DNA of 64,000 nucleotides from Escherichia coli (lineage in GTDB: Bacteria > Pseudomonadota > Gammaproteobacteria > Enterobacterales > Enterobacteriaceae), in assembly GCF_003334355.1 (NCBI RefSeq), contig NZ_QOWP01000022.1; one strand, 5' to 3'. A model generated the notes under the pieces. The model had not been told where the DNA came from. It worked only from the letters and a program-made list of their open reading frames with translations, and searched no databases. A program made the translations under genes and the position numbers. Positions 57,623 to 57,673 of the stretch are shown piece after piece; the stretch's first letter is position 1; every line of letters starts with the position of its first letter.

Positions 57623-57673
57623 ACAGGGAATAGTATTAATAATTTCTATTTTTATATTATTCCCTGTTTTAAT
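57623..57673 (+). terminator. hairpin plus T-rich tract between yadN and yadV (intra-operon attenuator candidate)
   Basis: acagggaata...24-nt AT loop...tattccctgt followed by tttaatt. Confidence 0.5.

Follow-up and report, generated by a model that had tools for sequence, protein, structure and literature searches.

We start from a question that the Yad fimbrial locus of Escherichia coli raises: what is a hairpin doing between the gene of the major subunit and the gene of its chaperone? In the window (the whole stretch of DNA that was analysed, 64,000 nucleotides), the ORF list places the Yad chaperone-usher fimbrial operon at the end, on the + strand after pcnB and folK, and the genes follow each other in the order yadN, yadV/ecpD, htrE, yadM, yadL, yadK and yadC. 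The gene names are taken from the RefSeq annotation of identical or near-identical E. coli genomes, and YadV matches the NCBIfam fimbrial chaperone model PRK09926 with 472 bits against a cutoff of 285. The yadN-yadV gap, given as 104 bp in an earlier sequence-only reading of this DNA, is indeed 104 nt long (yadN ends at 57590 and yadV starts at 57695), with a G+C content of about 22%. The remaining junctions of the operon are 11-49 nt or overlapping (ORF list). The gap after yadN is the sole long one, and is therefore the only place in the operon that fits a structured element. The features that we consider are as follows.

57006..57590, + strand: yadN, major fimbrial subunit, 194 aa (ORF list, RefSeq annotation of identical sequence, NCBIfam fimbrial-protein matches)
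57594..57622, + strand: second, weaker hairpin GUAUUCACCAAUUAAAUUGAUUGAAUGAAUAU directly after the yadN stop (MFE fold of the gap)
57623..57636, + strand: 5' arm of the main hairpin, ACAGGGAAUAGUAU (sequence, RNAfold, repeat finder)
57637..57653, + strand: AU-rich apical region, 17 nt, with a possible 4-bp inner helix; length and sequence differ among alleles
57654..57667, + strand: 3' arm, AUAUUAUUCCCUGU (sequence, RNAfold, repeat finder)
57667..57676, + strand: U-rich tail, UUUUAAUUAA, whose first U may pair with A57623 (sequence, allele alignments)
57683..57691, + strand: yadV ribosome-binding region, CAGGGAUGG (sequence; conserved in the allele alignments)
57695..58435, + strand: yadV (ecpD), periplasmic fimbrial chaperone, 246 aa (ORF list, RefSeq, NCBIfam)
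58470-61067, + strand: htrE (ORF list)

At the far end of the operon, the tip-adhesin gene yadC (62943-63842) is interrupted by IS1, whose left end (GGTGATGCTGCCAACTTACTGATTTAGTG) begins at 63821 and is followed within 63821-64000 by the InsA reading frame. The yadC frame stops after 299 codons, K-12 yadC is 1251 nt long, and the Yad fimbriae here are probably without a working adhesin.

The two 10-nt arms of the sequence-only reading are present exactly where it placed them (ACAGGGAATA at 57623-57632 and TATTCCCTGT at 57658-57667). The stem that RNAfold predicts has 14 bp with one G-U pair (57623-57636 / 57654-57667), and a repeat finder carries the arms to 17 nt at 88% complementarity (57623-57639 / 57651-57667). 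The T-rich tail that had been described directly 3' of the stem is there as well: the stem is followed by TTTTAATTAA, with TTTT at 57667-57670 and AATTAA at 57671-57676. All four G-C pairs of the stem lie among the six pairs nearest to the U-run, as one would expect them to in a terminator stem. The tail offers four consecutive U; were the basal A-U pair to open, its first 8 nt would contain 6 U. The folding-energy calculation that had been proposed as a check gives a value that is not weak. The segment 57618-57680 folds at -17.5 kcal/mol, the dinucleotide shuffles at -6.1 +/- 2.2 kcal/mol (z = -5.2, with 0 of 200 as stable), and the entire gap at -26.8 kcal/mol (z = -3.6). On the coding strand, the hairpin starts 33 nt past the end of yadN; 27 nt remain from its 3' end to the start of yadV, and 15-20 nt to the yadV Shine-Dalgarno/ribosome-binding region. 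Since this region is downstream of the U-run, a transcript released there would carry yadN only.

The weaker hairpin at 57594-57622 abuts the main one, and its 5' half would lie under a ribosome that terminates at the end of yadN. It is present in several alleles, and several fold another hairpin at that place; in the allele alignment, the weaker hairpin is not recovered by RNAalifold and is not in the consensus structure. An internal yadV promoter in the gap was also considered and finds no support in the promoter scan, which gives no plus-strand promoter-like site in 57591-57694.

The next question is "does the hairpin resemble an intrinsic terminator?" A typical intrinsic terminator has a stem of 5-14 bp with a GC-rich base, a loop of 3-8 nt and a U-tract of about 7-9 nt. 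We scored every candidate made of a hairpin and a T-rich tail, on both strands of the window, using a d'Aubenton-Carafa-type discriminant (d) and ViennaRNA energies; the discriminant was calibrated on older energy parameters, so that its zero line is approximate while its ranking is informative. The yad hairpin has d = -17.9 and ranks 41st of 572, below the threshold and among many intragenic false positives, because its long AU-rich apical part lowers the energy per nucleotide and its U-run breaks after four. Positive scores (+7 to +39) are reached by nine of the 572 candidates, which have short GC-rich stems followed by five to eight T. One of these nine clear terminators, a 37-nt GC-rich hairpin at 20405-20441 with T-runs on both strands (d = +20 and +23), is likely a bidirectional terminator between convergent genes. 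A simple terminator scan did not list the yad hairpin, because the loops that it permits are of 3-8 nt, and this hairpin has one of 12-17 nt (17 nt here, 12 nt in K-12). The other E. coli alleles score from d = -3 (an allele with seven U) to -24, and the best score in the S1SRL allele, -33, belongs to a different, overlapping hairpin. A terminator on the minus strand is ruled out, its tail (UAUAUUCA) failing even a lenient U-run filter. The most that the E. coli yad hairpin can be is a weak, leaky terminator, or else it stabilises a 3' end; its weak score fits an internal site that needs read-through, and fits just as well a structure with no other task than to protect a 3' end.

We turn to the other versions of this gap within the species. 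The allele set consists of 10 distinct E. coli versions, about 75-100% identical across the junction, and all ten have the hairpin at the same spot (-11.6 to -20.1 kcal/mol, z from -3.3 to -5.9). Given an unguided alignment of the whole gap, RNAalifold predicts the main helix and nothing else. The core of the outer stem, GGGAAUA/UAUUCCC, is largely conserved as sequence. Among the 11 outer pairs in the eight closest alleles, 8 are invariant, one has changed on both sides (C-G to U-A) and two carry single changes that are compatible with wobble pairing, with pair 2 being C-G, U-A or U-G depending on the allele. Covariation in these eight alleles is not significant against the shuffle control (301/500), so that we claim no statistical covariation, and the conservation of the stem could partly reflect short divergence times.

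Several changes between the alleles nevertheless keep the pairing. The K-12 gap, which stands for an identity class of about 1140 complete genomes, is 7 nt shorter (L001 1718-1775 compared with window 57617-57681), the 5' arm having lost 6 nt and the loop 1 nt. In place of the bulged stem of 14 bp, K-12 has a stem of 13 bp that pairs perfectly and closes a loop of 12 nt. In the MB10 and E50 alleles, GGGAA/UUCCC is replaced by GGGAG/CUCCC, and a U-A pair further in by C-G; MAFFT shifts these two alleles by one column, which the covariance-model alignment corrects, but that alignment is itself fitted to the structure. In its sequence, the inner stem varies from one allele group to the next (GUAU/AUAU, CAUCAA/UUGAU, CAUUG/CAAUG or ACAUUC/GAAUGU), and it is always self-complementary. 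The inner segment is more self-complementary than its own shuffles in 10/10 alleles (p = 0.002-0.20), where the p-values are not independent, the alleles being related, and their Fisher combination is descriptive and not a valid probability. As for the tail, UUUUAAUUAA is identical in 8/10 alleles, and the others have UUUUUUUAAC in one and UUCUAAAUAA in S1-SRL-01-C; as to the U-run itself, one allele (Ecol_448) has U7 and one has UUCUAAAU.

Is the same position filled in other taxa? A scan for YadV in species-representative genomes yields 20 loci. In the yad-like operons, the YadV homologue is 45-62% identical, and the upstream ORF is a YadN homologue wherever the order is subunit-chaperone (36-41% identity in the closer loci). 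The gaps of these other taxa are not alignable to that of E. coli; when the element is turned into a covariance model, this model hits a single site in the 64-kb window and has no hit among the non-E. coli loci. In almost all such loci, a hairpin with a U-run, of unrelated sequence, is found at the subunit-chaperone junction. The hairpin of Escherichia sp. E1V33, E. albertii and E. whittamii is UAAGGUUUGCC-NNNN-GGCAAACCUUA UUUUC, that of E. coli E69 is GAGGCUGUGCUUGCAGCCUC UUAUUUAUG, that of a Pantoea MAG is GUGCGUAUC...GAUACGCAC UUUUUCUAUUU, and that of Salmonella diarizonae is GGUCUGGUG...CACCAGACC AUUUUCUAU. Strong junction hairpins are also present in Pseudocitrobacter, two Citrobacter species, Superficieibacter, Stenotrophomonas and others, and the hairpin is absent only from two loci, whose gaps are very short (4 and 49 nt).

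The junction hairpins of E. albertii, E. whittamii, Escherichia sp. E1V33, E. coli E69 and the Pantoea MAG score d = +1 to +16. They share with the E. coli hairpin the junction, the strand and the combination of hairpin and U-run. Their stems, however, are GC-rich, of 8-11 bp, with 4-nt loops and d > 0, while the E. coli stem is longer, AU-rich, sub-threshold and non-homologous to them. Unrelated sequences each form a hairpin at this junction, and the site has therefore been refilled. Judged by sequence comparison, this refilling is the strongest computational argument that we have, and it suggests that the position needs an RNA hairpin, one that is terminator-like in most lineages.

The position of these operons on the chromosome deserves a remark of its own. 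Downstream of folK in E1V33, E. albertii, E. whittamii and E69 lies a yad-like operon whose subunit is 39-41% identical to YadN and whose chaperone is 57-62% identical to YadV. E69, although labelled E. coli, carries such a divergent yad-like allele. The place downstream of folK has the look of a cassette that has long been polymorphic or replaceable.

Hairpins of this kind are found after many major fimbrial subunit genes. The pap operon provides a mapped example: according to Dar and Sorek (2018), the papA mRNA ends in an RNase-resistant terminator structure. The pap hairpin, like that of yad, comes between the major subunit gene, which it follows directly, and the assembly genes, and what these authors describe there is an abundant, stable major-subunit mRNA with a protected 3' end, which serves to keep the subunit in excess over the machinery. 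The two cases differ in several respects. The pap structure has been mapped by experiment and acts together with an RNase E cut between papB and papA, whereas the yad structure is predicted from its sequence; the yad operon is without an upstream regulator cistron; and the two hairpins share no sequence similarity, the yad hairpin, unlike that of pap, being AU-rich, with a large loop and a sub-threshold terminator score.

Next we consider what expression data say about the two sides of the junction. H-NS keeps the yad locus silent, and human serum induces it (PMC13245861). The 3'-end supplements of Adams et al. (2021) contain no entry for yadN, yadV or ecpD, and silencing by H-NS explains why yad is missing from 3'-end maps of E. 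coli grown in laboratory media. The raw fold changes by qRT-PCR, taken after 20 min in serum, are in strain CFT073 about 15 for yadN, 2.5 for ecpD (yadV), 1.7 for htrE, 3.3 for yadM, 2.9 for yadK, 1.6 for yadL and 4.2 for yadC, and those in strain EC958 are about 3.6 for yadN, 1.6 for ecpD and 0.8 for htrE (PMC13245861); all of these qRT-PCR figures are relative values only. The CFT073 junction has a homologous hairpin, and a primer used for the CFT073 knockout agrees in sequence with the L028-type allele. The stronger serum response of yadN was noted in the 2026 Yad study, whose authors left it unexplained. In the infected spleen, yadN and ecpD rise similarly (in-vivo data, Fig 4A of PMC13245861). 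The gap in induction between yadN and the genes downstream is consistent with a decoupling at the junction and is not diagnostic of it. It would be expected if the majority of transcripts from the promoter ended or were trimmed at this point and the genes further on kept a basal transcription of their own. A constant read-through fraction alone would keep the fold changes equal, so that the qRT-PCR pattern also needs an independent basal transcription of the downstream genes.

Combining this information, we return to the function of the hairpin. The sequence-only reading had proposed a partial terminator after yadN. The position, the strand, the architecture, the conservation among alleles, the analogues at the junction and the discoordinate qRT-PCR all speak for this proposal, and the sub-threshold discriminant speaks against it. 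On balance, we lean towards the view that the hairpin is a leaky Rho-independent terminator that also protects the 3' end of yadN. Actual termination or stabilisation, and its strength, we infer from the above; the strength of any termination is probably low.

According to this model, the 14-bp stem would form on the transcript from the yadN promoter, with its GC-rich base directly before UUUUAAUU, and a fraction of the polymerases would release the RNA about 7-9 nt past the stem, around 57671-57676, before the yadV ribosome-binding site is reached. Only read-through transcripts would carry the yadV ribosome-binding region, the remaining polymerases continuing into yadV-htrE-yadMLKC. On the yadN mRNA, whether terminated here or trimmed later, the stable terminal hairpin would block 3'-to-5' exonucleases. 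The predicted result is more message for the major subunit than for the chaperone, the usher and the minor subunits, an excess that would match the need for many copies of YadN per pilus.

The main rival is that the hairpin acts on stability or processing only. There would be no termination at all; the transcript would be cut by an endonuclease in the AU-rich single-stranded UUUUAAUUAACUCU, and the hairpin would then stop 3'-to-5' exonucleases, in the manner of REP and other intercistronic hairpins, so that the yadN segment outlives the yadV-htrE segment. The sub-threshold terminator score, the large loop and the short U-run are what one would expect of such an element, and exonucleases would be stopped by a stem of this length and stability. 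The tail, identical in 8/10 alleles, is at least as conserved as the stem, and its sequence may thus matter beyond being rich in U; however, the conserved tail may simply belong to the translation-initiation region of yadV. In the pap and CFA/I fimbrial operons, parts of the message are documented to decay at different rates (references in Dar and Sorek 2018), and the fimA-fimI gap is processed by RNase E. The analogues in the sister species, on the other hand, are textbook intrinsic terminators with short loops and U-runs, which argues for termination as the ancestral job of the site. We regard an element of stability or processing alone as unlikely, if a serious contender.

A further explanation, a minor one, places the function outside the RNA. 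The palindrome would act at the level of DNA, as a protein-binding palindrome or as part of an AT-rich tract bound by H-NS, or would be neutral and shared by recent ancestry. The low G+C of the gap (about 22%) and the repression of the locus by H-NS would suit this, as would the outer stem, which shows mostly plain sequence conservation and non-significant covariation. There is also a sigma-70-like match on the minus strand, from 57685 to 57656 (CTGACA-18-AATAAT, 10/12), which overlaps the 3' arm. However, promoter-like matches occur at the chance rate (19 found against 18.5 expected from shuffles), and the antisense match is probably due to chance. The inner stems differ among the alleles and remain self-complementary, the indels of K-12 keep the pairing, and the replacement of GGGAA/UUCCC by GGGAG/CUCCC is compensatory; in distant taxa of very different base composition, hairpins that are not homologous recur at the junction. 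Structure-preserving changes together with recurrent hairpins give a pattern that fits selection on the structure and not on a sequence recognised by a protein. A role in the DNA, or none, is accordingly improbable in our judgement.

We also considered whether the hairpin is a member of a repeat family or of a known class of RNA. REP and BIME hairpins can protect the mRNA upstream of them and skew expression within operons. They are, like the yad hairpin, intercistronic hairpins of E. coli, but REP elements are multi-copy with a GC-rich consensus, and the yad hairpin is single-copy and AT-rich. A BLAST of the junction against 5426 complete E. coli genomes gives matches in 3111 genomes with megablast and in 4169 with blastn, at a median of 1 place per genome, and this copy number rules out a dispersed repeat of the REP, BIME or MITE kind. 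Rfam has no family at the gathering threshold; its only hits are microRNA-precursor models with 17-20 bits against the 68-90 required and E > 1, which is what any long AU-rich hairpin yields by chance.

The same searches provide some observations on the distribution of the locus. About 23% of the complete E. coli genomes have no junction match by blastn; the junction is on plasmids in 3/3127 matches, and a few genomes have two copies. In E. coli ECCHD184 (L005 2107-4045), the IS5-like element ISKpn26 truncates yadN and is directly followed by a 3' fimbrial-gene fragment and panB, so that most of the yad operon is deleted there. The contig NZ_JAHZMP010000039.1 (670 bp, about 1x), labelled as the clostridial anaerobe Terrisporobacter mayombei, encodes YadV at 99% identity and is almost certainly an E. 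coli contamination of that assembly.

The last alternative, again a minor one, is a regulatory RNA. Here the hairpin would be part of a small RNA cut from the 3' UTR of the yadN mRNA, similar to FimR2, that acts in trans or titrates a regulator such as CsrA. The type 1 fimbrial operon sets the precedent: the fimA-fimI gap is a structured 3' UTR and the source of the small RNA FimR2 (PMC9723502). Like the yadN-yadV gap, it is structured and follows the gene of the major subunit directly, again in a chaperone-usher operon of E. coli. FimR2, however, is a demonstrated product of RNase E with functions in trans and CsrA binding, while the likeness of yad to it is one of position, with no detectable homology. 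A stable hairpin with a U-tail would suit a small RNA, and the GGA-containing motif CAGGGA is present twice, at 57624-57629 in the 5' arm and in the 57683-57690 region at the yadV ribosome-binding site. At the latter, CAGGGAUG is identical to the core of the CsrA-binding consensus CARGGAUG. Against this, the hairpin has no Rfam match above threshold, nothing in it beyond its position resembles FimR2, and its GGA is buried in the stem. CsrA is without major effect on yadN mRNA in strain 86-24, which disagrees with an earlier report for EDL933 (mSphere 2024).

A variant of this idea has the AU-rich stem working as a condition-sensitive switch of read-through, which may be set by temperature or by a protein such as CsrA on the duplicated CAGGGA motifs. 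The 3' arm could in principle pair with the yadV ribosome-binding site instead of the 5' arm. By analogy with FimR2, a small RNA cut from the yadN message is conceivable, but we consider it very improbable, and we give just as little credence to the broader proposition that the yadN 3' hairpin of this "cryptic" operon is either a released FimR2-like small RNA or such a switch. If one of the two were true, the expression of Yad would be coupled to other behaviours, or the assembly of the pilus would be gated apart from the synthesis of its subunit.

We therefore keep to the leaky terminator that also protects the yadN 3' end as our model. The E. coli yad hairpin is an unreported instance of an attenuator/stabiliser after a major fimbrial subunit gene, and a literature search found no description of it. 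It is mildly interesting in that E. coli has a long AU-rich, sub-canonical hairpin where the sister species use canonical terminators. If the model is true, it explains why the response of yadN to serum is stronger than that of the genes behind it, and it bears on experiments in which the yadN transcript level is used as a proxy for the whole operon. It would refine the annotation of the operon and not introduce a new principle. It would be one more example of how chaperone-usher operons, as a rule, balance subunit against machinery by an RNA structure after the first gene, an example in which the site is kept across species though the sequence filling it has been replaced.
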